A stretch of DNA of 64,000 bases from Oscillospiraceae bacterium (GCA_015069215.1 SVJC01000001.1:25896-89895); one strand, 5' to 3'. Numbered from the stretch's first letter, positions 2,730 through 26,393 are shown. Made by a program: numbers and translations. Notes: generated by a model from the letters alone, not told the origin.

Positions 2730-4508
2730 TCAGCGCTCGCGTCCGTTTATGCCGTCGCGTGCATGTATCTTCTGTTTTTCTTCGTACATCAGTTCATCTG
2801 CTCTCTCAAAGACTTCCTGATAGGACTTGTCCTTTTCGCGGTCAAACATGGCGCATCCGACTGAGAAAGAGACCCTTTCCTCGAGGACTTTGGAAGCCTC
2901 CCTCTCTTCTTCGAGCATCAGTCTCAGGTTATCGAGATGGTATTCAAGCCTTGCGTATTCAATACCGGAAGGCAATACCACAAACTCGTCTCCGCCGATC
3001 CTGAAAACGGCACTCATCGGGAACGCCTGACAAAGGAGATGGGCGGCTCTTCTCAAGACTTCATCGCCGGCCTTGTGACCCCTCGTGTCGTTGATTATCT
3101 TCAGGTAGTTAAGATCGCACATGATGACGGCAAATTCAGCGGTTCCGGCCTTTATCTGCTCGTCGATGTAACCGGTTGTGTCGTCGTACGCGGTCTTATT
3201 CTTAACATTCGTAAGTGAATCAGAATAAGCAAGGTTCTTCATGACAACGAGGTCACTTTGCTGCTGCTTCATCTTCTCTGCGGCCTTCTCGATACGGAGG
3301 TCCTGGGCAGCGGCGCGCGCCTTGTTGTCTTCCTCTCTGGCACGGATCTTGTCTATTGCCAGACGGAATGCTTTTGATAATTCACCAACCTCGTTATTTT
3401 TCTCAGGCGGCAATAAGACATCGTAGTCGCCATTACTTATCTCATGAGCAGCGGCAGTGATCTTTCTGAGAGGATCCGTAATGCGGTTGGCCATTATGGC
3501 TGCAACGGCTGCAAAAATAACTGCCAGGGCAAACGTTACGATGATCATAATGTTTACCAGTTGGTTCCTTTCATCGAAAATGCTTTCATAGCTGTCACAA
3601 AGAACGAGCTTCATCCCGTTTCTGAGCGTCGTAAAAGCCATGACACGGTCACCGTCTTTGAAATTATAACGGATCAGCTTATCTCCGGTCACACTTGCCT
3701 TCATAAGCTCACCGTTCTCGACCAGTTCATCCATTTCGTCACCATGAATGTTCTCATTTTTGAGGAAAGCCGGATGATAATGAACGCTTCCGTCCGCTTC
3801 TTTCAGATACACGTAGCCGGTCTCGTTATATCTTATCGTGTCGAGTTTACTAAGAAGCCTTTCAAAGCTTATATCGATACCGATGACCGCAACCGGAGTA
3901 CCGTCAATAAAGACAGGCTGGACGTACGAGATCAGATACATGCCGATGCTGTCGTCAAAATAAGGCTTCGTCCAGGTGGCTTTCTTGTTTCTTATCGGTC
4001 CGTAATACCAATAATCCGCAGACGAATCCTCAGGTATCTCTGCCTGAGTAAAGGGTATTTTCTTATATTTTCCGTTCGCATCACGGCTGTAATATACTCC
4101 TTCTTCGCGGTCCACGGCGCCGGTGATGTCGATGGAGTAATGGATATAGACACTTTCGATAACGTCATTTTCCTCAGTCATGAACGTGAGCAGATTGTCC
4201 ACGTCATCGATCACGGCATCACGTGTCTTAACATCATCTTTGAATGAGTTAAGATCGGGGATCTTACTGTAAGTCCATTTCGAGAGCGAGCCTACTGCAT
4301 CTTCTATCCTGATAAGCTCCTTATTGATGTCATCACCTTTTTCACTGCAAAACAGATTCATGTGGGAAGATGCATCCTTGGTGAGCGTGTTGCTCATGAG
4401 GATCGCGCTGAGGGTAACGAGAACGGTGGCAAGGCAAAAGATCCCGATGATTATCAGGAGCATCAGTCTTCTGCTTATGGATGAAAAGAATCCTTTTTTA
4501 TTCTTCAT
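2730..4508 (-). CDS. Cache-HAMP-GGDEF diguanylate cyclase
   Basis: Two TMs flanking a Cache-like region (WT.PYFD, ISYV.P, GIDI), a HAMP domain (NEVGEL) and intact RIGGDEF. Confidence 0.9.
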   Translation of the reverse strand: MKNKKGFFSSISRRLMLLIIIGIFCLATVLVTLSAILMSNTLTKDASSHMNLFCSEKGDDINKELIRIEDAVGSLSKWTYSKIPDLNSFKDDVKTRDAVIDDVDNLLTFMTEENDVIESVYIHYSIDITGAVDREEGVYYSRDANGKYKKIPFTQAEIPEDSSADYWYYGPIRNKKATWTKPYFDDSIGMYLISYVQPVFIDGTPVAVIGIDISFERLLSKLDTIRYNETGYVYLKEADGSVHYHPAFLKNENIHGDEMDELVENGELMKASVTGDKLIRYNFKDGDRVMAFTTLRNGMKLVLCDSYESIFDERNQLVNIMIIVTFALAVIFAAVAAIMANRITDPLRKITAAAHEISNGDYDVLLPPEKNNEVGELSKAFRLAIDKIRAREEDNKARAAAQDLRIEKAAEKMKQQQSDLVVMKNLAYSDSLTNVKNKTAYDDTTGYIDEQIKAGTAEFAVIMCDLNYLKIINDTRGHKAGDEVLRRAAHLLCQAFPMSAVFRIGGDEFVVLPSGIEYARLEYHLDNLRLMLEEEREASKVLEERVSFSVGCAMFDREKDKSYQEVFERADELMYEEKQKIHARDGINGRER

Positions 4509-4634: not shown

Positions 4635-6002
4635 TCATTCAACGTTAGGAAGCGTTGCGAATCCCTTTTCGAGATCCTCGTCGGTAGGGATGAAGTCGTT
4701 CATCTTACCGTCGTGGTATGCCTGATATGCAGTCATGTCGAAGTAGCCTGTACCGGTGAGGTTGAACAGGATCGTCTTAGCTTCGCCGGATTCCTTGCAC
4801 TTGAGAGCCTCGTCGATCGCAGCACGGATGGCGTGTGAAGACTCAGGCGCAGGAAGGATCGTCTCTGTTCTCGCAAAGAGCGTAGCAGCCTCGAAAACCT
4901 TTGTCTGCTCGACAGCGACAGCCCTCATGTAACCGTCGTGATAGAGCTGTGAAACAATGGGAGACATACCGTGATATCTCAGGCCGCCTGCGTGTGAAGG
5001 TGAAGGCATGAACTCGGAACCCAGTGTGTACATCTTGCCGAGAGGGCAAACGTGACCTGTGTCGCAGAAATCGTATGCAAATCTTCCCCTTGTAAGTGAA
5101 GGGCAGGAAGCAGGCTCAACGGCGATGATCTCGGGATCCTTCTTGCCTGTGAGCTTGTCTCTCATGAATGCTGACATGATGCCGCCAAGGTTGGATCCGC
5201 CGCCTGCGCAGCCGATTACGATGTCAGGATACTCGCCGGCCTTCTCCATCTGGAGATAAGCCTCTTCACCGATGATGGACTGGTGAAGGAGGACCTGGTT
5301 AAGAACTGAACCCAGTACGTATCTGCTGTTGGGAGTATGTGTAGCCTTCTCGACAGCCTCGGAGATAGCGCATCCCAGGGATCCGCCTGTTCCGGGGAAC
5401 TTTGCGAGGATCCGGCGTCCAACTTCAGTCGTATCGGAAGGTGAAGGAATGATGTCAGCTCCGAATGACTGGATAACGGACTTTCTGAAAGGCTTCTGCT
5501 CGTAGGAGCACTTAACCATGTAAACCGTGAGCGGGATATGGAAGAATGCGCTTGCCATTGCAAGAGCCGTTCCCCACTGGCCTGCACCGGTCTCAGTCGT
5601 GATCGAATCAAGACCCTGCTTCTTGGCATAGTAAACCTGTGCTGCTGCAGAGTTGAGCTTGTGGGAACCTGATGTGTTGTTACCCTCGAATTTGTAGTAG
5701 ATGTGGGCGGGCGTGCCGAGCTCCTTCTCGAGCTGGTAAGCACGGATCAAAGGTGAAGGTCTGAAGATCTTGTAGAACTCGATAACTTCCTCAGGAATGT
5801 CAATGTAGCGTGTATCGTTGTCCAGTTCCTGCTTGCAGAGCTCTTCGCAGAAGATGGGTGACATCTGCTCAACAGTAAGAGGCTCATGCGTAGCGGGATG
5901 GATCAGAGGTGCGGGTTTGTTCTTCATGTCCGCACGGACGTTATACCATTGCTTCGGCATCTCATCTTCCGTCAGAAAAATTCTCTTTGCTTTGTCTGCC
6001 AT
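4635..6002 (-). CDS. trpB2: TrpB-like PLP enzyme (tryptophan synthase beta, TrpB2 type)
   Basis: SGSHKLN (PLP Lys), TETGAGQWG, GCAGGGSN, HAGGLRYHG, PAPESSHA and the long N-terminus typical of TrpB2. No trpA is adjacent. Confidence 0.93.
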   Translation of the reverse strand: MADKAKRIFLTEDEMPKQWYNVRADMKNKPAPLIHPATHEPLTVEQMSPIFCEELCKQELDNDTRYIDIPEEVIEFYKIFRPSPLIRAYQLEKELGTPAHIYYKFEGNNTSGSHKLNSAAAQVYYAKKQGLDSITTETGAGQWGTALAMASAFFHIPLTVYMVKCSYEQKPFRKSVIQSFGADIIPSPSDTTEVGRRILAKFPGTGGSLGCAISEAVEKATHTPNSRYVLGSVLNQVLLHQSIIGEEAYLQMEKAGEYPDIVIGCAGGGSNLGGIMSAFMRDKLTGKKDPEIIAVEPASCPSLTRGRFAYDFCDTGHVCPLGKMYTLGSEFMPSPSHAGGLRYHGMSPIVSQLYHDGYMRAVAVEQTKVFEAATLFARTETILPAPESSHAIRAAIDEALKCKESGEAKTILFNLTGTGYFDMTAYQAYHDGKMNDFIPTDEDLEKGFATLPNVE

Positions 6003-6081: not shown

Positions 6082-6350
6082 AAAAAAGTCCTGTGCCTAA
6101 AAAGACACAGGACAGAATATACTGCGGTACCACCTGTTTTGACTGCCGGGTTCTATGAGGTTGGCAGTCCACTCCGGTTCACGTTCCAACAAACGTGCTC
6201 TGCGGATAACGGGAGAGTTCCCGTCGGGCCATTTCCTGCCCGCCCGTCATCGGATCCATTCTCCGGCACCTCAGATCCGCAATCCCACCATCTGCGGCTC
6301 TCTCGTTCTTCGGTGTTCCCCGGGTACTATTTCCGAGTCATTCGGTTTAA
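6082..6350 (-). ncRNA. Trp-specific T-box riboswitch with terminator
   Basis: Minus strand: GA motif GGAAATAGTACC, AGAGAGC and GATGGTGGGA boxes, specifier GAA-TGG-A (UGG at 6256-6258), T-box AAACAGGTGGTACCGC (GGTGGTACCGC core 6124-6134), terminator GTCCTGTGTC/GGCACAGGAC plus T6 (6082-6113). Confidence 0.92.
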
Positions 6351-16736: not shown

Positions 16737-17561
16737 TCAATATTCGTCCATGAAGTTATATGTGACGCCGTCTTTCGTGTAAGAGATGACGCTGTCCAGA
16801 TAGACGTTCTCCATGCTGCTCATTATGTTTGCCTCGACTTCGGGATTCGTCTTGCGGAGTTCTCTTATAAGCTCTTTTGTCTCTTTGCGCTTTGACGTTT
16901 TCTCCCCGTCTTTTCTGCTCGTGACACGGCAGGCACAGTCGGCAAAGACCAGACCATATCTGTCACGCCAGGCTTCAATGTCCTCTTCCCTTATCAGATA
17001 CATCGGACGGATCAGCTCCATGCCTTCGTAGTTCTTGCTCTTGAGCTTGGGCATCATGGTCTCGACGTGTCCGCTCCAGAGCATGCTCATCAGGGTCGTC
17101 TCAATGACATCGTCGAAATGGTGACCCAATGCGATCTTATTGCATCCGAGTTCTTTTGCCTTTGCGTAAAGCGCCCCGCGCCTCATCCTTGCGCAGAGAA
17201 AACATGGCGATTTGTCCTCCCCGGATACCGCTTCAAACAGTCTGTTTTCGAAAATGGTGAGCGGCAGACCGATCTGCTCTGCGACCGATTCAATGTTCTT
17301 TCTGACAAGCTCATCGTAGCCGGGATCCATGACCATAAAGACAAGTTCAAACGGGAACTTGTCATGGCGCTTGAGCTCCTGAAAGAGCTTTCCCATGAGC
17401 ATAGAATCCTTGCCGCCAGAAATACACACGGCGATCTTGTCGCCGGGAGACAGGAGTTCATATTTGACTATTGCTTTGGTAAATCTCGAGAAGAGTCTGT
17501 CGTGTATCGTGCGGTCTTTCCTGAGATCCTGTTCTATCAGGGAAGCGTCCATAAAGATCAC
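16737..17561 (-). CDS. TtcA-family tRNA 2-thiolation PP-loop ATPase
   Basis: CISGGKDS, SPCFLCARMRRG, LGHHFDD, LIRPM and CAC. Confidence 0.88.
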   Translation of the reverse strand: MIFMDASLIEQDLRKDRTIHDRLFSRFTKAIVKYELLSPGDKIAVCISGGKDSMLMGKLFQELKRHDKFPFELVFMVMDPGYDELVRKNIESVAEQIGLPLTIFENRLFEAVSGEDKSPCFLCARMRRGALYAKAKELGCNKIALGHHFDDVIETTLMSMLWSGHVETMMPKLKSKNYEGMELIRPMYLIREEDIEAWRDRYGLVFADCACRVTSRKDGEKTSKRKETKELIRELRKTNPEVEANIMSSMENVYLDSVISYTKDGVTYNFMDEY

Positions 17562-17965
17562 TTCTCCTTCATCAGGTCAGCTATCTTAACACTCTCAAGA
17601 TATTCGTTTATGCGGTCGTTCAGGCCTTTCCAGAGCGGCAGGGTACGGCAGTCTTCGATGTGCTCGCACATCTCGGCACCGTCTTCAAGACATGCCACTG
17701 GAGCGATATCGCCTTCGGAGACCTTCAATACTTCAGCAACCGATATCTTGGCAGGGTCTCTCGAAAGACGGTATCCGCCGCCTTTTCCGTGAACTCCTTC
17801 AACCAGATTGTCTGCAACAAGCTGCGGAAGTATGCGCTCAAGATACTTCAACGAAAGTCCCTGGCGCTCTGCGACTTCACGCATCGGAACATAGCCGTTC
17901 TTTGCGTTTTCGGCAAGATCTATAATTACACGGAGAGCATAACGTCCCCTGGTTGATATCATCAT
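17558..17965 (-). CDS. Rrf2 family transcription regulator with 3 Cys (IscR/CymR-like)
   Basis: ISTRGRYALR, YLERI, G.GGGY.L and ACLEDGAEMCEHIEDC. Confidence 0.92.
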   Translation of the reverse strand: MMISTRGRYALRVIIDLAENAKNGYVPMREVAERQGLSLKYLERILPQLVADNLVEGVHGKGGGYRLSRDPAKISVAEVLKVSEGDIAPVACLEDGAEMCEHIEDCRTLPLWKGLNDRINEYLESVKIADLMKEK

Positions 17966-18023: not shown

Positions 18024-18470
18024 TCAGGTATCGCAGGAACCTTCTGCACAGTGTGCGCAGTGTGCCTCATCAGGGAATTCGTTCTTATCGTATTCGATGC
18101 CGTTCTTGTCGAAATAATCCTTCAATGCGAGCTTGATCGCTTCTTCTGCAAGGACGGAGCAGTGGAGCTTATGCGCAGGAAGACCGTCAAGAGCTTCGGT
18201 AACTGCTTTGTTCGTCAGAGCGGCAGCCTCGGATATAGGCTTTCCTTTAATGAGTTCAGTTGCCATGGAGCTTGAAGCGATTGCGCTTCCGCATCCGAAC
18301 GTCTCGAACTTAACATCCGTGATGATATCGTTGTCTATCTTCAGATAGATCTTCATGATGTCGCCGCAGACGGGATTTCCGGCTTCACCTACGCCGTCAG
18401 CGTCCTCGATAACTCCTACGTTTCTGGGATTCCTGAAATGATCCATTACCTTTTCACTATATAAAGCCAT
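18024..18470 (-). CDS. iscU: Fe-S scaffold protein IscU/NifU
   Basis: YSEKVMDHF.NPRN, GNPVCGD, GCGSAIASSS and KLHCS. Confidence 0.95.
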   Translation of the reverse strand: MALYSEKVMDHFRNPRNVGVIEDADGVGEAGNPVCGDIMKIYLKIDNDIITDVKFETFGCGSAIASSSMATELIKGKPISEAAALTNKAVTEALDGLPAHKLHCSVLAEEAIKLALKDYFDKNGIEYDKNEFPDEAHCAHCAEGSCDT

Positions 18471-18485
18471 ATTGATTCTCCTTTC

Positions 18486-19676
18486 TTATTCCGCGAAAAC
18501 GTGCTGGCGCTTGCCGTTTACAAGGTCACGCCAAAACGGTGACATGTTTCTTAAATATGTAACTACTTCAGTAACGGCATCGATCAGATAATCAACATCC
18601 GCTTCTGTTATATCTTCACCGAGTGAGATCCTCAGTGACCCGTGAGCAACCTCGTGAGGTCTTCCGATCGCAAGGAGCACATGGCTCGGATCAAGCGAGC
18701 CGGAAGTGCACGCGCTTCCTGAAGATGCGCATATTCCCTTGTCATCGAGCAATAGCAGGAGTGACTCCCCTTCAATTCCTTCGAAGCAGAAATTGACATT
18801 GCTGGGGAGACGGTTTGTTCTGTCTCCGTTCAGTTCACCGTAGGGGATCTTGTCCAATCCTTCAATAAGGCGGTCTCTGAGCTTTATAAGCTTTTCTGCG
18901 TTCTTGTCGAGGTTTGCGGATGCTTCCTCCAATGCCGCAGCCATCCCCATGATCGCCGGGATATTCTCTGTACCTGCCCTCTTGCCTCTTTCCTGTGCTC
19001 CGCCGTTTATGACGTTTTCGAGCAGGATCCCGCGCTTTGCGTAAAGAACACCGATACCCTTGGGGCCGTGGAACTTGTGAGCCGAGAGCGAGAGCATGTC
19101 AATGTTCTGTTCTTTAACGTTTATATGTAAGTGACCTGCAGCCTGTACTGCATCAGTGTGGAACAGGACCTGCTTTTCCCTGCAGACTTTTCCTATCTCG
19201 GCTATCGGCTGGATCGTTCCTATCTCGTTATTTGCAAACATGATGGTTACAAGGCAGGTATCCTCGCGGATCGCGTCAGCGACCTGTTCTGCGGTTATGA
19301 CACCGTTCTTGTGAACGTCAAGAAGAGTGATCTCAAAGCCCTGCTTCTTGAGCTTTTCGAGCGTATGAAGAACTGCGTGATGCTCGAAAGCCGTTGAGAT
19401 GATGTGTTTCTTGCCCTTCTTCTCGCCCAGTCTGGCAGCTGAGAAGATCGCCTGGTTGTCAGCTTCGCTTCCGCCTGACGTGAAGGTTATCTCTCTGGGT
19501 TCACATCCTAATACAGAAGCGATCCTTTCCCTGGCATTCTCAAGAGCCTCTTTTGCCTCCTGTCCAAAAGAATAAAGACTTGAAGGATTACCATATATTT
19601 CATCCATATATGGAAGCATTGCATCAATGGCCGTACGGCTCATCTTTGTCGTTGCCGCATTGTCAGCGTATATCAT
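18486..19676 (-). CDS. iscS: Cysteine desulfurase IscS/NifS
   Basis: [34 protein letters not shown] and [10 protein letters not shown]. Confidence 0.95.
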
Positions 19677-19734
19677 TATTTCCTCCTCATCAGATCTCTC
19701 TATATATGTAAAGTATCTGATTAATTTTACTATT

Positions 19735-19755
19735 TACCTACCATTTCAGTAGGTA
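19735..19755. promoter_or_regulatory. Palindromic operator 1 (candidate Rrf2 site) at the iscS promoter
   Basis: Perfect TACCTAC-N7-GTAGGTA just downstream of the minus-strand promoter TTGACA(19789-19784)-17-CATATT(19766-19761). Confidence 0.65.
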
Positions 19756-19812
19756 CGAATAATATGAACCATGAGGCCCGTAATGTCAATGGAAAATTTT
19801 TAAAATCCGTGC

Positions 19813-19861
19813 TTGACAACAAATATGCACTCGTGTATATTACCTACTAACCGAGTGGGTT
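19813..19861 (+). promoter_or_regulatory. sigma-A promoter of leader-metY-cysK with overlapping operator 2
   Basis: TTGACA (19813-19818), 17 nt, TATATT (19836-19841), then TACCTAC-N7-GTGGGTT (19841-19861). Confidence 0.75.
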
Positions 19862-19890
19862 ATAGTGTTTTCAGGAAAGGAGGAGCCCCA

Positions 19891-20001
19891 ATGTTAGCAG
19901 CAATTCGCAATTCCATGTGCATGTGTATGATGCCTTGTTGGCGCACTGGGAATACCGAGTGCTTCTCTTGTCATATGGACGACCTGAGCATGCGAATGTG
20001 A
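19891..20001 (+). CDS. Met/Cys-rich leader peptide (36 aa)
   Basis: Very strong RBS AGGAAAGGAGG. Sequence MLAAIRNSMCMCMMPCWRTGNTECFSCHMDDLSMRM contains 8 Met and 5 Cys. It lies directly upstream of metY-cysK. Confidence 0.8.
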   Translation: MLAAIRNSMCMCMMPCWRTGNTECFSCHMDDLSMRM

Positions 20002-20028
20002 TACAGGATACGAAAATAAGATTATGGG

Positions 20029-20058
20029 AAGGGAGCGCTAAGGAAGGCTCCTTTTTTT
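20029..20058 (+). terminator. Attenuator terminator between leader peptide and metY
   Basis: AAGGGAGC-loop-GCTCCTTT followed by a T tract, 80 nt before the metY ATG. Confidence 0.75.
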
Positions 20059-20138
20059 ATTCAAAGATCACAACTTCCTTATCACCGTAAAACGGAAAAC
20101 AAAATCAAGATTTCATTTATCTAAAAGGAGATAACATT

Positions 20139-21425
20139 ATGAGCAACAAAAATTATAAATTCGAAACCCTTCAGCTTCACGTAGGCCAGGAACAGCCGGA
20201 TCCCGCAAGTGACGCAAGAGCAGTACCGATCTACGCAACAACATCTTACGTATTCCGTAATTCAGCACACGCTGAAGCACGTTTCGGACTTGCTGACGCA
20301 GGCAACATCTACGGCAGACTTACAAACTCCACACAGGGTGTTTTCGAAGACAGGATCGCAGCTCTCGAAGGCGGCGTAGCAGGTCTTGCAGTAGCATCAG
20401 GCGCAGCAGCGATCACATATGTAATCGAAGCTCTCGCAGTTAAGGGCGAGCACATCGTAGCACAGAAGACCATCTACGGCGGTTCCGAGAACCTCCTTGC
20501 ACACACACTTCCTCTTTATGGCATCGAGACAACATTCGTCAACATCCATGACCTTGAAGAAGTAAAAGCAGCCATCAGACCCAACACAAAGGCTCTCTAC
20601 ATCGAGACATTGGGCAACCCTTCTTCTGACATCCCGGATATCGAAGCACTCGCCAAGATCGCTCACGAAGCAGGCATCCCGCTCGTTATCGACAATACTT
20701 TCGGTACTCCTTACCTCATCAGACCTATCGAGTACGGTGCAGATATCGTAGTTCATTCCGCTACAAAGTTCATCGGCGGTCACGGCACGACATTGGGCGG
20801 CGTTATCGTTGATTCCGGTAAGTTCGACTGGGCTAAGTCAGGCAAGTATCCCTGGATCTCCGAACCCAACCCCAGCTATCACGGAGTTAAGTTCACAGAG
20901 GCAGCAGGCCCTGCAGCATTCGCAGTTTACATCAGAGCCATCCTGCTCCGTGACACCGGTTCTTCCATCTCGCCTTTCGCGGCATTCCTGCTCCTCCAGG
21001 GCACAGAGACACTTTCTCTCCGCGTAGAGCGTCACATCGAGAATACAAATAAGGTTCTTGTATACCTTAAGAATCATCCGAAGGTTGAGAAGGTCTTCCA
21101 CCCTGCACTCGAAGATCACCCCGATCACGAAGTATACAAGAAGTACTTCCCCAACGGCGGCGGCTCCATCTTCACATTCAACGTTAAGGGCGGAAAGAAG
21201 GAAGCATTCGATTTCATCGATCACCTCGAGATCTTCTCACTCCTCGCCAACGTAGCAGACGTTAAGAGCCTTGTAATCCACCCTGCAAGCACAACACACT
21301 CACAGCTTTCCGAAGAAGAGCTCAACGATGTTGGTATCTACCAGAACACGATCCGTCTCTCCATCGGAACAGAGCACATCGATGACATCATCGCTGACCT
21401 CGAAAAGGGTTTTGCAGCCATCTGA
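20139..21425 (+). CDS. metY: O-acetylhomoserine aminocarboxypropyltransferase / sulfhydrylase
   Basis: FETLQLHVGQE, PIY.TTSYVF, NIYGRL.N, VHSATKFIGGHG, LANVADVKSLVIHPASTTHSQL and IRLSIG.E. Confidence 0.93.
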   Translation: MSNKNYKFETLQLHVGQEQPDPASDARAVPIYATTSYVFRNSAHAEARFGLADAGNIYGRLTNSTQGVFEDRIAALEGGVAGLAVASGAAAITYVIEALAVKGEHIVAQKTIYGGSENLLAHTLPLYGIETTFVNIHDLEEVKAAIRPNTKALYIETLGNPSSDIPDIEALAKIAHEAGIPLVIDNTFGTPYLIRPIEYGADIVVHSATKFIGGHGTTLGGVIVDSGKFDWAKSGKYPWISEPNPSYHGVKFTEAAGPAAFAVYIRAILLRDTGSSISPFAAFLLLQGTETLSLRVERHIENTNKVLVYLKNHPKVEKVFHPALEDHPDHEVYKKYFPNGGGSIFTFNVKGGKKEAFDFIDHLEIFSLLANVADVKSLVIHPASTTHSQLSEEELNDVGIYQNTIRLSIGTEHIDDIIADLEKGFAAI

Positions 21426-21481: not shown

Positions 21482-22414
21482 ATGACTAAGATCTACACGT
21501 CAGCCGATCAGCTTATCGGAAAGACACCGCTTCTTGAACTCACACACGTTGAAAAGGAATTGGGCCTTGAGGCAAAGCTCGTTGCAAAGCTTGAGTACTT
21601 CAATCCCGCAGGAAGCGTTAAGGACCGTATTGCCAAGGCTATCATCGAGGACGCTGAGGCATCCGGAAGACTTAAGGAAGGCAGCGTCATCATCGAGCCT
21701 ACAAGCGGCAACACCGGTATCGGTCTTGCTTCCGTAGCTGCAGCTAAGGGTTACCGTTTGATCATCACAATGCCAGAGACGATGAGCGTTGAGAGAAGAC
21801 AGCTCATCAAAGCTTACGGTGCAGAGCTCGTTCTCACAGAAGGCGCTAAGGGCATGAAGGGTGCCATCGCAAAGGCCGAGGAGCTCCAGAAAGAGATCCC
21901 GAACAGCATCATTGCCGGCCAGTTCATCAACCCTGCAAATCCTAAGGCACACAGAGAAACGACAGGACCCGAGATCTGGGAAGACACAGACGGCGAAGTT
22001 GATATCTTCGTTGCAGGCGTAGGCACAGGCGGAACAGTCACAGGTGTCGGTGAATTCCTCAAGTCGAAGAAATCATCCGTAAAGGTCGTCGCAGTCGAGC
22101 CCGCTGACTCTCCCGTTTTGAGTAAGGGCACTGCAGGTGCACATAAGATCCAGGGTATCGGTGCCGGCTTCGTACCTGAAGTCCTCAACACAGGCGTTTA
22201 TGACGAAGTCATCCCCGTTACAAACGATGATGCATTCGCAACAGGCAAGCTCTTAGGTCATAGTGAAGGCGTACTTGTAGGTATCTCTTCCGGTGCAGCT
22301 CTCTGGGCAGCCATCGAGCTCGCTAAACGTCCCGAGAACAAGGGCAAGACGATCGTAGCGCTTCTCCCTGATACAGGCGACCGTTACCTCTCCACTCCTC
22401 TTTTCCAGGAATAA
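21482..22414 (+). CDS. cysK: Cysteine synthase A
   Basis: [45 protein letters not shown] and GISSGA. Confidence 0.95.
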
Positions 22415-22774: not shown

Positions 22775-22950
22775 TTAAATGTCTATTAATTCTGTTAAAT
22801 TTGAGTTTTCTTTCCCCAAACAGGCACTCAAAAAGATTAGTATTAGTGTATATTCTGGCATGCTGCGAGAAGAAACCACATCCAGCCGGCTTTCTGCCAA
22901 ATAACATAGACGAAAGACAGTGTCACACAAGAAATAGGAAGGTGTTAGGA
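22775..22950 (+). promoter_or_regulatory. Conserved 5' leader of kinase 1 (copy 1)
   Basis: The ungapped 71-nt core (22775-22845) matches 26985-27055 at 59/71 by manual count. Stem TTTGAGT/ACTCAAA. Confidence 0.65.
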
Positions 22951-24771
22951 ATGGCAAACGAGAATAAAAGATTTCCGGATATCAGCGTAATCTGGCCAAA
23001 TTGGAAGATAACGGAAATTATCGGAAGGGGATCATTCGGTACCGTATATAAAGCTGTTCACGAAACCGCTGTAGTAGCTGGCGATGCCGCAGCTATAAAA
23101 GTAATCAGTATCCCAAATGAAGACAGCGAAACAGAAAACCGTAAGCTGGACGGGGCTTCCGAGGACGAGATCCGTAAAGAATACGAAGAGATCCGTGATG
23201 AATATGTTAACGAGATCAAATTCATGATGGATTTCAGAGACACCCCTAATGTCGTCAGGATCGAAGACTATGAGGTCGTTCCCAAAAAAGACAGCATCGG
23301 CTGGATCATATATATAAGGATGGAGTTACTGACCGATCTGAGGGTATGGGCAAACGAGCATGGTATTAACGCACATGATGTGATCCGGATCGGAAAAGAT
23401 ATCTGCCGTGCATTGATTACATGCGAAAAAAGGCATCTTTTGCACCGTGATATCAAGCAAAGCAATATCATGGTAAATACTACAACGAACACTTTTAAAC
23501 TTTCTGATTTCGGTATTGCAAAATACAACAATGCCCTTAATTGGAGCCTGTCTTTTAAAGGCACTCCCGATTACATGGCACCGGAAGTCTGTCAATTCAG
23601 TGAATATGACTCGCGGATAGATATCTATTCACTTGGTATGGTCTTGTATTATTACATGAACAAGAAACGTGGCCCGTTCCTTGTTCTAGACAGACTGCCT
23701 ACGGCTAATGAAAGAGAGAATGCCAACCAGAGGAGATATCAGGGCGAGCCTCTCCCTGCTCCTGCAGAAGCAGCACCTGCATTGTCCGAAGTAATACTCC
23801 ATGCCTGTGCGTACGATCCGAATGACCGTTTTCAGTCAGCTAAGGAATTCTACGATGCCCTGTGCCAGGTTGAAGCCGGAACATACAAGGTCGGCACTTA
23901 TGTTGCGTCAAATACAAATCTGCAGGTCGAGAATAAACTTCCGCAAGATGATTATGATTCCGGCACGGTAATGGTCCGACGTGCACCCGGCAGTTCTGTG
24001 CCGGAAATGTCTCAGGCACCTGTTTTTGTCCCGGCACAACCTGTTTCAAACGTGCAAAAGCCAATTACTGAAATGAAGAAAAAGAGATCTTCATTACCAG
24101 TCGTTATCATCGTGATTTTATTATTGATATCTGCTGCATGTGCAGTAGCGGTTTATCTGTTGCAAAACCATAAACCCATCAAAGAAAACAACAGCGAACG
24201 TATTACCGAAGAATCGGAATCTACCACGATAACAACTACAACTGCTACAACAACTACTACTGTTACACAGCCTGAAACAACAAGCCAGGCCACAACCGCC
24301 GAAAGCACTTATGAAACTTCTGGATCTGCACCTTTAGTTAATAAATTCTATGCATTCCCTGGCTGGTATGAGTTGGATAAGACTGTAGTAAAAAACAACA
24401 TGATTGCTGAAACTAGAAGCGATTATTGGTGGGAAAACGCTGACGGCACTAAAAATCCATATATATGGTTATATGTTTTCGATAAAGATGGTCACGCAAT
24501 TTGTGAATACTCTTGGCTTTGTTGTTCTAATGAGGCAAATGCAAAGGCAATGTATAACACTATCATGGGATATTCTTCCGATGAAGAAAAAAAAGATGTC
24601 TATTTAGACGGTAAATACATAGCGTTTAACAAACGCTACGCTGAATTAGATACTATTTTGAAAGTTGCTGGCTATAGTTCTTATGATCAAATTACCATGA
24701 AAGATGTTATTAGATATTTAGATGGATCTTTATGGGGGAAAGAACCTTCTGGCGAGATAGTATACAAATAA
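22951..24771 (+). CDS. Hanks-type Ser/Thr protein kinase with single TM, Thr-rich stalk and extracellular domain
   Basis: GRGSFGTVY, AIK, HRDIKQSN, DFG and GTPDYMAPE; TM PVVIIVILLLISAACAVAVYLL; TTTTATTTTT stalk. ATG 22951 follows an AGGAAGG RBS and aligns with the paralog start. Confidence 0.93.
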   Translation: MANENKRFPDISVIWPNWKITEIIGRGSFGTVYKAVHETAVVAGDAAAIKVISIPNEDSETENRKLDGASEDEIRKEYEEIRDEYVNEIKFMMDFRDTPNVVRIEDYEVVPKKDSIGWIIYIRMELLTDLRVWANEHGINAHDVIRIGKDICRALITCEKRHLLHRDIKQSNIMVNTTTNTFKLSDFGIAKYNNALNWSLSFKGTPDYMAPEVCQFSEYDSRIDIYSLGMVLYYYMNKKRGPFLVLDRLPTANERENANQRRYQGEPLPAPAEAAPALSEVILHACAYDPNDRFQSAKEFYDALCQVEAGTYKVGTYVASNTNLQVENKLPQDDYDSGTVMVRRAPGSSVPEMSQAPVFVPAQPVSNVQKPITEMKKKRSSLPVVIIVILLLISAACAVAVYLLQNHKPIKENNSERITEESESTTITTTTATTTTTVTQPETTSQATTAESTYETSGSAPLVNKFYAFPGWYELDKTVVKNNMIAETRSDYWWENADGTKNPYIWLYVFDKDGHAICEYSWLCCSNEANAKAMYNTIMGYSSDEEKKDVYLDGKYIAFNKRYAELDTILKVAGYSSYDQITMKDVIRYLDGSLWGKEPSGEIVYK

Positions 24772-24806: not shown

Positions 24807-26393
24807 ATGCCTATCTGTACTTGGTGCGGTGAAAACAACGAAAACGAAGGACCTATCTGCGTAAAATGCGGAAATCCCCTGCCGGGTTCCCAGCCGTCAG
24901 TTCCGGATAATCAGAATGTTCTTGCCTGCCCAAAGTGCGGAACAAAATACGAAGCCGGTGATCAGTTCTGTACAAGATGCGGTAACACTTTAGATCTCCC
25001 CGTTCCGCCTGAAAGTAAACCTGATCCTGCACCGGCAGATCCCGCGCCGCTTGCTTGTCCAAAATGTGGTAAGGGTTACGAAAAGGGAGATAAGTTTTGC
25101 ACGAAATGCGGTACTTCTTTCGTTCAGCCTGCCAAACCGGTTCAGAACGTTTTTGTGCCCGCACCTGTACCTTCTCCGGCTCCTACCCGGGAACCCGAAC
25201 AGAAAAATATATGTCCGGAGTGCGGCGAGATCAATCCTAAGTCGTTGCGTTTTTGCGCAAATTGCGGCAGCTCGCTTGCCTCATCTGACAGTGTGTTTCA
25301 GAAAACTCAAAATCCGTTCAATAATCTCATAGTCACTCCGGCTCAGGCTCCGCGTCAGGCACAGACATCCGGACAGAAGAACATCTGCCCGACTTGCGGC
25401 GAGATCAATTCAACGAACAGTCATTACTGTGTAAAATGCGGCGGCACGCTCAATCCTGTTAACAAATCAGTAAATGCAACTCAGGTAGCCAGACGTCCGA
25501 CTCAGGCAGGCGTTGATCCTCTGACATTGCTGACGCATTATGACGGCCAGGAAAAGACCTTCAGTCTGGAAGGACACGAATTTACGATCTCAAAAGAAAT
25601 GGACGCATATGTCTATTACAGAAAGATGTTTAAGCAGGCCGCCAAGTTCATGGTTCAGCAAGTAATGCCTGAATATAATGCTCAGGTCCACAATTTGGAC
25701 GATTACTTTGCTAAATTTCCGATCATGTATGTACACTACAGAAGATTTTTGATCGATCAGGCTGTAAAGATCCTGATAAGCTACGATATCTACGACATCT
25801 CTCGCGAAGAATTCGAAGAAGAACTTGGCAACGAATTCAGCAAATGCAACGTAAAATACCAGGAACTCATCGAAGCATTCAATCAAACGATTGAGGATAA
25901 CCAGGCACGCGCAGCAATGCGTGGAAGTCTGTTGCCGACAGTCTTTTTCAGCGGCGGCGTTTTGGGATTTGCCAAGGCAATCGCTTATAATGCCGCTTCA
26001 ACAGCCATAGTTGAAGCAAGCATCAGAAATGCTAATGTAACCCGCGCGCAAAGAAATGAGCTTTTCAGAAGAATAACGCTCTCCGAATTGTTCGAAGATG
26101 TATTTCATGATTATTGGGATGTCCACTACTCGCTGACATACAGATTGCATGAAAGCGGTGCTGATGTATGGTATCCGAGCGTGGAAGGCAACACAAAGGC
26201 TCAGGGCCTTATGAGAAATCTCAACAGCAATCTTATTCCGGAAGACAGGATAGTCACCGTTCTTCTTAAGATATTTGAAACCCGTCCCATGCAGACCGGT
26301 TGTCTTGATTACGTGGTCAGGAAGTTTGGCCGTACCCCGGAAGTTAAGGCGATATGTGATTATTACGGATATGAAGCCGGAATCGGCAACTGA
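24807..26393 (+). CDS. Protein with five zinc-ribbon modules and an unknown helical C-terminal domain
   Basis: Five CxxCG-x(8-9)-CxxCG units separated by P/Q-rich linkers. The C-terminus contains FFSGGVLGFAKAIAYNAAS. Confidence 0.88.
   Translation: MPICTWCGENNENEGPICVKCGNPLPGSQPSVPDNQNVLACPKCGTKYEAGDQFCTRCGNTLDLPVPPESKPDPAPADPAPLACPKCGKGYEKGDKFCTKCGTSFVQPAKPVQNVFVPAPVPSPAPTREPEQKNICPECGEINPKSLRFCANCGSSLASSDSVFQKTQNPFNNLIVTPAQAPRQAQTSGQKNICPTCGEINSTNSHYCVKCGGTLNPVNKSVNATQVARRPTQAGVDPLTLLTHYDGQEKTFSLEGHEFTISKEMDAYVYYRKMFKQAAKFMVQQVMPEYNAQVHNLDDYFAKFPIMYVHYRRFLIDQAVKILISYDIYDISREEFEEELGNEFSKCNVKYQELIEAFNQTIEDNQARAAMRGSLLPTVFFSGGVLGFAKAIAYNAASTAIVEASIRNANVTRAQRNELFRRITLSELFEDVFHDYWDVHYSLTYRLHESGADVWYPSVEGNTKAQGLMRNLNSNLIPEDRIVTVLLKIFETRPMQTGCLDYVVRKFGRTPEVKAICDYYGYEAGIGN

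Follow-up and report, generated by a model that had tools for sequence, protein, structure and literature searches.

Firmicutes control their methionine and cysteine genes, in the textbook account, through S-box and T-box RNAs. Leader-peptide transcription attenuators, in which the position of the translating ribosome sets the fold of the leader RNA, are known from trpL and hisL of E. coli and Salmonella, and in E. coli the leaders of thr and ilv answer to more than one amino acid. Here we describe a leader upstream of the metY-cysK gene pair of an Oscillospiraceae bacterium (GCA_015069215.1, SVJC01000001.1:25896-89895; "the window" is this whole stretch, 64,000 nt of one strand, and all window coordinates count from its first letter), in which a small upstream open reading frame (uORF) dense in Met and Cys codons lies just ahead of an intrinsic terminator. 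We consider it likely, on the strength of comparative sequence analysis and folding models, that this leader is a ribosome-mediated transcription attenuator of metY-cysK, with the availability of charged Met-tRNA and Cys-tRNA as its signal. The trp/his-type logic is known; the amino-acid specificity and the host group appear to be new. The sequence elements, their conservation, their pairing energies and a modelled dependence on ribosome position are reported here as direct observations.

A Met/Cys uORF and its alternative helices

The uORF begins behind a Shine-Dalgarno (SD) sequence and encodes MLAAIRNSMCMCMMPCWRTGNTECFSCHMDDLSMRM, in which 8 Met and 5 Cys make up 13 of the 36 residues. At codons 9-16 (MCMCMMPC, hereafter the cluster) seven of eight residues are Met or Cys, compared with a background of 4.1% in the 11 window genes (Met 2.4%, Cys 1.7%). 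Such density is rare: among 670 ATG-started open reading frames (ORFs) of 10-70 aa on both window strands, the uORF alone has more than four Met/Cys in 8 residues (it has 7), and over 79 loci with relatives of MetY, short ORFs this dense in Met/Cys show an enrichment of about 23-fold in the 400 nt 5' of metY over the rest of the loci (Fisher p = 1e-10). A preliminary description of this DNA, made by eye, had proposed a strong ribosome-binding site followed by a 36-codon uORF with 13 sulfur-amino-acid codons, 7 of them in codons 9-16, and the sequence bears out every one of these counts; it had also placed codon 16 correctly at 19936-38, and the start it gave for the whole element, 19873, takes in the SD.

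The same description had read three mutually exclusive RNA helices, 1:2, 2:3 and 3:4, and we find each where it had been placed, with folding energies that support it. Helix 1:2 pairs GCACU (19943-47) with AGUGC (19958-62) and adds a GG/CC pairing; folded alone, the hairpin 19943-19962 reaches -10.0 kcal/mol (z -4.6), and none of 200 shuffles does as well. The 2:3 duplex, joining 19957-74 to 20025-40, is worth -17.7 to -19.6 kcal/mol (p ~0.03 against shuffles), or -17.7 to -22 kcal/mol over all estimates, and would act as the antiterminator, while the 3:4 terminator, an 8-bp G+C-rich stem with a U7 tract, is worth -11 to -13 kcal/mol in silico. A consensus terminator scan missed this hairpin because its loop has 10 nt and the scan covers loops of 3-8 nt. 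The uORF stops 26 nt before the terminator. Region 2 has yet another possible partner, as the SD (AAGGAGGAGC) is complementary to it (GCUUCUCUU; duplex -14.6 to -16.8 kcal/mol, p = 0.02), and this pairing is a second conserved candidate for an anti-antiterminator. The SD region at 19876-19888 (GAAAGGAGGAGCC) also pairs over 13 bp with the terminator 3' arm and U tract at 20046-20058, a helix that belongs to the lowest-energy structure of the complete leader in each of the four lineages compared (the window and the three relatives introduced below); in readthrough transcripts this pairing could block further translation of the uORF.

How the fold depends on the ribosome was modelled by masking. 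Each fold began 13 nt beyond the first base of the codon occupying the ribosomal A site and ran through the whole terminator; as readout, the pairing probabilities were averaged over the terminator stem to give P(terminator). For the window leader P(terminator) is 0.7-0.9 with early codons in the A site, 0.3-0.8 over codons 9-14 and about 0 at codons 15-19, where the 1:2 hairpin is lost; it then rises over codons 20-21 and stays at about 0.9 from codon 22. In the relatives L102, L106 and L116 it stays at about 0 between roughly codons 4 and 20, except at codons 11-13, where it reaches about 0.5-0.6 (L116: 0.3-0.6), and it is about 0.9 once the A site has come to codons 21-22 or beyond. The model thus shows a ribosome in or just behind the cluster giving the antiterminator and a ribosome past the cluster giving the terminator, and it agrees, for an A site at codons 15-19, with the earlier proposal that a stall at the end of the cluster masks region 1 and frees region 2.

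From these results we infer that the uORF is translated, that ribosomes stall at cluster codons, that transcripts terminate at the hairpin and that both amino acids have a role. In the mechanism we propose, transcription would begin at about 19848, some 43 nt before the uORF, from a near-consensus promoter flanked by two operator-like palindromes that would add a separate layer of control by a protein repressor. A ribosome would then load on the strong SD and translate the 36 codons. When Met and Cys are plentiful it would cross codons 9-16 and region 2 to the stop codon; a ribosome lying over region 2 would block the 2:3 pairing, so that the 3:4 hairpin and U7 tract would form and the transcript would end before metY. 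Scarcity of Met-tRNA or Cys-tRNA would make the ribosome stall in MCMCMMPC, its leading edge covering region 1 and stopping short of region 2, and the free region 2 would pair with the terminator 5' arm in a duplex stronger than the terminator (-18 to -22 against -11 to -13 kcal/mol), so that RNA polymerase would read on into metY-cysK.

Relatives, recurring leader types and rival readings

A pattern scan of metagenome contigs returned 19 loci, 15 of which were TG-rich simple repeats and were discarded; the 4 true relatives are L102, L106, L116 and L117, the last of which agrees with L102 at every position in the first 600 nt of the compared 2003-nt stretches. They share the layout of the window locus: divergent nifS, a palindrome, a promoter, a second palindrome over the transcription start, SD, uORF, terminator and metY. 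In the four-lineage alignment the SD, codons 8-17 (S MCMCMMPC W), the region 2 segment GUGCUUCUCUUGUCAU, the end of the uORF (CGAAUGUG) and the terminator 3' arm with its U tract are invariant, while codons 2-7, 18-23 and 29-34 are free to vary. The terminator 5' arm of the relatives reads GAAGGAGC, which removes a G-U pair, and the small CCUG/CAGG hairpin around the end of the uORF changes to CCAG/CUGG in L106. A strain about 90% identical to the window, found in gut metagenome contigs, keeps codons 9-16, C24 and C27, loses M29 and M34, and has one G of the terminator 5' arm removed, with the same loss of the G-U pair. An RNAalifold consensus of the four sequences contains a 16-bp 2:3 helix and a 13-bp helix between the SD region and the terminator 3' arm and U tract, and the SD pairing is also present in the single-sequence fold.

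These comparisons bear on the preliminary description in several ways. Conservation of the uORF upstream of metY stands, as its SD and Met/Cys cluster are kept in three independent relatives. For the 1:2 helix a local hairpin is found in all four lineages (-6.6 to -9.0 kcal/mol, z -2.1 to -3.5, in the relatives), with the same 3' strand at the start of region 2; its register does not carry over, the 5' strand in the relatives being shifted onto codons 17-19. Computing the alternative folds upheld the switch between 2:3 and 3:4 in the window lineage, but it also showed a ribosome-free leader that favours the antiterminator and an SD that competes for region 2, neither of which had been foreseen.

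We surveyed the 700 nt before 80 metY homologues in genome assemblies, mostly from Lachnospiraceae, Oscillospiraceae and other rumen/gut Clostridia, and found three recurring uORF types. The core family, type C (..MMMEMCMW.C.MCM.FCAFISDMFS..), aligns with the window leader in the cluster and region 2, and a profile search gathers 30 clusters of proteins about 43 aa long, none of them named beyond "hypothetical". It stands before metY (P0004, P0020, P0028) and before metQ (Lipoprotein_9) with metN (ABC_tran + NIL), a methionine importer (P0026, P0023, P0008). Every member has an SD at correct spacing, and the indels between AUG and cluster in the DNA alignment are all multiples of three, which argues that frame matters up to the cluster. 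After the cluster L058 has a 1-nt deletion and reads the conserved UUUCCGAUAUGUUCUCC in another frame, so the region 2 block is best regarded as an RNA element. That block forms a duplex of -14 to -20 kcal/mol with a stretch (GGGAGACUUUAUCGGA) that spans the terminator 5' arm, the loop and the start of the 3' arm; the 2:3-type pairing has p <= 0.072 against shuffles in each of 13/13 leaders, the window included, and 94.8% of the cells in the type C alignment are paired, against 33-61% in slid controls. There are two compensatory pairs (U-A to C-G in L062, A-U to G-C in L070), and where L062 and the window lineage have terminator sequences of their own, region 2 differs to match. In the consensus fold the SD (GGAGAACA) is paired with UGUUCUCC, and the cluster's two AUGUGCAU repeats form a helix together. 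Between stop codon and terminator there are 21-29 nt in 12 of 13 type C leaders and 17-29 nt in 15 of 16 leaders of the window's type.

Type B (..MMCCRM.NSRA..MAGA..) is unrelated in sequence and comprises 13 loci and 20 unnamed protein clusters, before metY with a PALP (cysK-type) gene, before metY with ABC permeases, and before an amino-acid ABC transporter operon. Anaerovibrio lipolyticus DSM 3074 is an isolate with a leader of this type (L006); for the window lineage no isolate turned up. Its NSRA corresponds to an RNA segment, CUCCCGGGCA, that follows the cluster by 0-4 nt and pairs with UGCCCGGGAG in the terminator. The antiterminator is worth -20 to -23 kcal/mol, against -14 to -22 kcal/mol for the terminator; it is 100% paired in 13 sequences, two of which carry a compensatory G-C to A-U change, and in most members the mask model gives a sharp flip from antiterminator to terminator just after the cluster. 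Among the metY upstream regions gathered, Met/Cys-rich uORFs with pairing and compensatory changes recur in relatives, the pattern for which the preliminary description had suggested looking. Scans of the three peptide types against Pfam and NCBIfam gave no family.

Three independent sequence solutions share an SD-led uORF, a Met/Cys cluster, an antiterminator strand directly behind it, a terminator and a downstream sulfur-amino-acid gene, and in this we see the strongest argument for the Met/Cys codons as the sensor. Leaders of these types also precede transporter operons (L085, L093, L097 (metQ-metN), and L119, an amino-acid ABC transporter beside a LysR gene), and since the same leader types stand before both transporters and metY, a ribosome-read regulon of several operons is indicated.

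It is possible in principle that the attenuator answers one amino acid only, or general translation stress, with the other sulfur codons as passengers or as parts of the RNA structure. The cluster combines Met and Cys codons in all three leader types, and the operon encodes both a homocysteine synthase and a cysteine synthase, which together lead us to think a single signal unlikely. What speaks for it is that the window model flips fully only at the last Cys codon and its neighbours, that related leaders precede methionine transporters, which would favour Met as the main signal, and that Cys-only uORFs are known in mycobacteria (bioRxiv 10.1101/834739). The two-amino-acid reading does not ask for anything without precedent in other lineages. 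Leaders that respond to several amino acids are well established in E. coli thr and ilv.

Known riboswitches do not account for the region. Rfam holds no S-box (RF00162) match in the window at the gathering score and none in 19650-20200 at E up to 10; T-box (RF00230) is likewise absent from 19650-20200 at E up to 10, as is any other plausible family, and regular-expression searches for S-box and T-box also returned nothing. The preliminary description had seen neither RNA in the leader, and the gathering and permissive thresholds both agree with it. In 32 related loci (metY or metQ) there is no S-box or T-box before that gene and no Rfam family for the leaders. The window's only T-box (6105-6350, minus strand; 95.1 bits, gathering score 93) carries GAA-UGG-A in its specifier region and precedes a 455-aa ORF at 4635-6002 (minus strand) that looks TrpB-like from its sequence; the organism does use T-boxes, though not for metY-cysK.

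A different kind of RNA switch would bind a metabolite (S-adenosylmethionine, methionine, homocysteine) or a protein, and the Met/Cys content would then be a by-product of AUG/UGY-rich motifs. In its favour, neither the cluster nor region 2 varies even in its nucleotides, the cluster repeats pair mutually in the core-family consensus, and region 2 is conserved as RNA and not as peptide. Yet such a switch would leave unexplained the strong SD at the right spacing in every member, the frame kept by indels before the cluster, the ORF stop placed 17-29 nt before the terminator in 15 of 16 leaders and the existence of three sequence-unrelated leader types that are Met/Cys-rich and have no common fold; Rfam, too, offers no matching family. 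We therefore judge a switch made of RNA alone to be quite improbable.

Several findings nevertheless weigh against ribosome-mediated attenuation by Met and Cys as we propose it. The window leader loses its terminator fully only for stalls at codons 15-19, and with stalls at the Met codons within 9-14 the local 1:2 hairpin persists, which keeps P(terminator) at 0.3-0.8. At equilibrium the ribosome-free leader of the window lineage adopts 2:3 together with the pairing of the SD and region 4, the terminator 3' arm, and not the terminator; the default without translation may thus be readthrough, unlike in trp, and since the equilibrium fold favours the antiterminator, the fate of an untranslated leader depends on folding kinetics. 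Most type C leaders keep very strong terminators at any ribosome position at equilibrium, from which it follows that any switch there must be kinetic; a thermodynamic switch in type C was dropped as a candidate, the mask having left P(terminator) unchanged in most. In the core family AUGUGCAUG is self-complementary and forms a predicted hairpin, and with a cluster invariant also in its nucleotides it is possible that selection acts there on RNA and not on codons. What ties the window leader to the core family is its architecture together with a partial alignment, as the window peptide is absent from the core-family profile matches and, for the exact peptide, no gene of identical product is on record. 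Rumen metatranscriptome contigs (Logan) contain abundant metY-like transcripts of mixed species, with the leader under a single chance fragment, the RNA data retrieved for the A. lipolyticus locus L006 are likewise metatranscriptomes, and the case for an attenuator is computational throughout.

A further uORF type is found among the loci L001-L125 (e.g. L081:1718-1789, L025:3868-3924). Its peptide, ..(Y)FE(K/R)LVRxNFRFGRM, is conserved and ends in a stop or continues into a Cys-rich tail; it matches no Pfam or NCBIfam family. We count 37 distinct copies immediately 5' of metY or metQ. Wherever a core leader is present this uORF lies 3' of the terminator, and it is not present in the window at 20059-20138. 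The MetY proteins closest to the window's (96-98% identity), those of L001 (Ruminococcaceae bacterium YAD3003) and L005, sit in other genomic contexts and have this uORF in place of the window leader type; near-identical metY genes with differing leaders indicate that leader types have been swapped between them. Its Leu, Arg and Gly positions use 4-6 synonymous codons each, and this variation argues for selection at the level of the peptide, which suggests a nascent-peptide arrest element and not a plain codon-run leader. The codon pair CGA-AUG is found in 35 of 37 conserved-peptide uORFs, in 12 of 13 type B clusters and as the last two uORF codons in 4 of 4 sequences of the window lineage; CGA makes up 2 of 187 Arg codons in the 11 window genes, and the pair may be a programmed slow-decoding step before Met.

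We are tempted to speculate further, tentatively and as something we hold to be possible without expecting it, that rumen/gut Clostridia with no S-box at metY possess a ribosome-read sulfur-amino-acid regulon, with at least three undescribed leader classes (one of them ..FEKLVRxNFRFGRM) before metY, cysK, metQNI and other transporters, in which the near-invariant CGA-AUG would be a slow-decoding Met-tRNA-sensitive step or a nascent-peptide arrest site. If so, the CGA-AUG step would be a new sensing principle on top of classical attenuation. The attenuator itself, if confirmed, would mean more: a large group of rumen/gut Clostridia would read Met- and Cys-tRNA charging by ribosome and not by S-box or T-box, and sulfide assimilation (metY, cysK) and methionine uptake (metQNI) would apparently be controlled together. 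Dozens of tiny "hypothetical protein" families would gain a function, and the leader would offer a compact natural sensor of Met/Cys-tRNA charging for reporters.

Transcription signals and neighbouring genes

The coordinates of the leader elements, transcription signals and flanking genes are collected below.

Features of the metY-cysK leader and its surroundings (window coordinates)
Feature	Position	Strand	Remarks
Intergenic region	19677-20138		between minus-strand operon and plus-strand metY-cysK pair
Operator-like palindrome O1, TACCTAccatttcagTAGGTA	19735-19755		at predicted start of divergent nifS-nifU-rrf2-ttcA operon; kept in L102, L106, L116
Sigma-70-type promoter, TTGACA-17-TATATT	19813-19841	+	for leader and metY-cysK; 11/12 consensus matches; kept in relatives
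Operator-like palindrome O2, TACCTActaaccgagTGGGTT	19841-19861		over predicted transcription start of leader; kept in relatives
SD, AAAGGAGGAG	19876-19885	+	5 nt 5' of ATG at 19891
SD region of uORF, AAAGGAGGAGC	19876-19886	+	complementary also to region 2 and terminator 3' arm
Leader peptide uORF, 36 codons	19891-20001	+	stop TGA 19999-20001; kept in L102, L106, L116
Met/Cys sensor cluster (putative), MCMCMMPC	19915-19938	+	codons 9-16; invariant in four lineages and ~90% identical strain
Region 1, GCACUGG	19943-19949	+	5' strand of local anti-antiterminator hairpin
Region 2, CCGAGUGCUUCUCUUGUCAU	19955-19974	+	alternative partners: region 1, SD, region 3
CGA AUG UGA (rare Arg codon, Met, stop)	19993-20001	+	inside small covarying hairpin CCUG 19983-86 / CAGG 20004-07
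Region 3	20025-20040	+	terminator 5' arm and flanking bases; region 2 partner in antiterminator
Intrinsic terminator	20029-20058	+	arm AAGGGAGC 20029-36, 10-nt loop, arm GCUCCUUU 20047-54, U7 tract
metY, O-acetylhomoserine/O-acetylserine sulfhydrylase	20139-21425	+	TIGR01326, 615 bits (cutoff 495)
cysK, cysteine synthase A	21482-22414	+	TIGR01139, 455 bits (cutoff 351)
nifS/iscS	18486-19676	-	NCBIfam score above curated cut-off
nifU	18024-18470	-	clostridial NifU model, above NCBIfam curated cut-off
Rrf2 regulator	17558-17965	-	Rrf2-family, IscR/CymR-like, under both NCBIfam equivalog cut-offs
ttcA-like gene	16737-17561	-	NCBIfam match under its cut-off

The palindrome TACCYA-N9-TRGGTW (TACCTA-N9-T(A/G)GGT(A/T)) occurs twice in the 64 kb, as O1 and O2. 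Many metY and metQ loci carry this palindrome across the -35 TTGACA, whether a leader peptide is present or not, and the core leader loci have an equivalent second palindrome 3' of the -10 box. Such palindromes are probably a repressor site, and the adjacent Rrf2 protein, IscR/CymR-like in sequence, is the obvious candidate to bind them; in C. perfringens an equivalent Rrf2-iscS-iscU cluster is induced by cysteine limitation (PMC2940859). A LysR protein was also considered and is unlikely as the binder, because the sole leader locus beside a LysR gene (L119) is without the palindrome; it has TTATC-N5-GATAA repeats. With its repressor operator and its putative attenuator, and with a second uORF added in relatives, the locus would be a case of layered control.

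Promoter and palindromes also bear on whether the uORF might instead make a small sulfur-rich protein with a function of its own (as metal binder, redox protein or precursor peptide), with the hairpin ending the uORF's own transcript and metY-cysK left to the palindrome repressor only. Against this, the 80 nt between terminator and metY contain no promoter-like site. The peptide is poorly conserved in the lineage outside the cluster, peptide conservation after the cluster is explained by RNA pairing, the frame can change there (L058), and the same leader types precede different sulfur-amino-acid genes. Conserved palindromes that occur alone before some metY genes, and peptides conserved enough for hidden Markov model families, are what such a small protein has in its favour, and we consider it very improbable beside an attenuator.

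Elsewhere in the window, two plus-strand ORFs lie 3' of cysK, at 22801-24771 and 24807-26393; their translations show Ser/Thr-kinase-like motifs (HRDIKQSN) in one and several CxxC repeats of zinc-ribbon-like appearance in the other. A membrane protein whose end reads in translation as a GGDEF-type domain (RIGGDEF) is encoded at 2730-4508 (minus strand).

Comparison with described leaders

In the full-text literature, a coverage that leaves out most subscription journals, we found no leader peptide that contains Met and none before metY, cysK or metQNI in Clostridia; this is provisional, and it accords with the preliminary description, whose author knew of no described clostridial example. Methionine is among the few amino acids for which we found no leader-peptide transcription attenuator described.

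Cysteine is better represented. Actinobacteria have cys leaders with Cys-rich uORFs (PMC1262725), and in mycobacteria polycysteine leaderless short ORFs form a "Cys ribulon" in which several loci are coordinated via ribosome pausing (bioRxiv 10.1101/834739). These resemble the window leader as Cys-codon-rich uORFs before cysteine-metabolism operons. The mycobacterial ORFs, however, are leaderless, have no SD, carry Cys runs without Met and act by unmasking a downstream ribosome-binding site and not through an intrinsic terminator, whereas the window uORF has an SD and a leader ahead of it, alternates Cys with Met and is followed by a U7 terminator 80 nt before metY. In Rhodobacterales the uORFC-8-2 motif before cysS, which has tandem Cys codons and a terminator, is a candidate for ribosome-mediated attenuation (PMC8632094); it differs in having two Cys codons only and no Met, in preceding a tRNA synthetase gene and in belonging to alpha-proteobacteria.

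Closer in host, bacilli have a His leader before hisS/hisZ paralogues (PMC2965389), and the S. aureus ilv operon is reported to have a leucine-rich attenuator peptide (PMC5794164). They show leader-peptide attenuation in Firmicutes beside T-boxes, for other amino acids, other genes and other orders, with no example described for sulfur amino acids or Clostridia. With the S-box and T-box themselves the proposed system would share premature termination before sulfur-amino-acid genes, relieved on shortage; the difference lies in the sensor, here a translating ribosome and not an aptamer or a tRNA-binding leader.

Like the E. coli thr and ilv leaders, the window peptide mixes codons of linked pathways in one reading frame, with other amino acids, in another lineage and with no sequence relationship. 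From trpL and hisL it differs in the amino acids it would read, Met and Cys, in having Clostridia (Bacillota) as hosts, and in using its SD as a second partner for region 2 that also pairs with the terminator 3' arm, with readthrough as the predicted ribosome-free default. What it has in common with them is the whole arrangement: an SD-led uORF, a cluster of codons for the end product, exclusive 1:2, 2:3 and 3:4 helices among which the ribosome's position would decide, and a terminator before the first structural gene.

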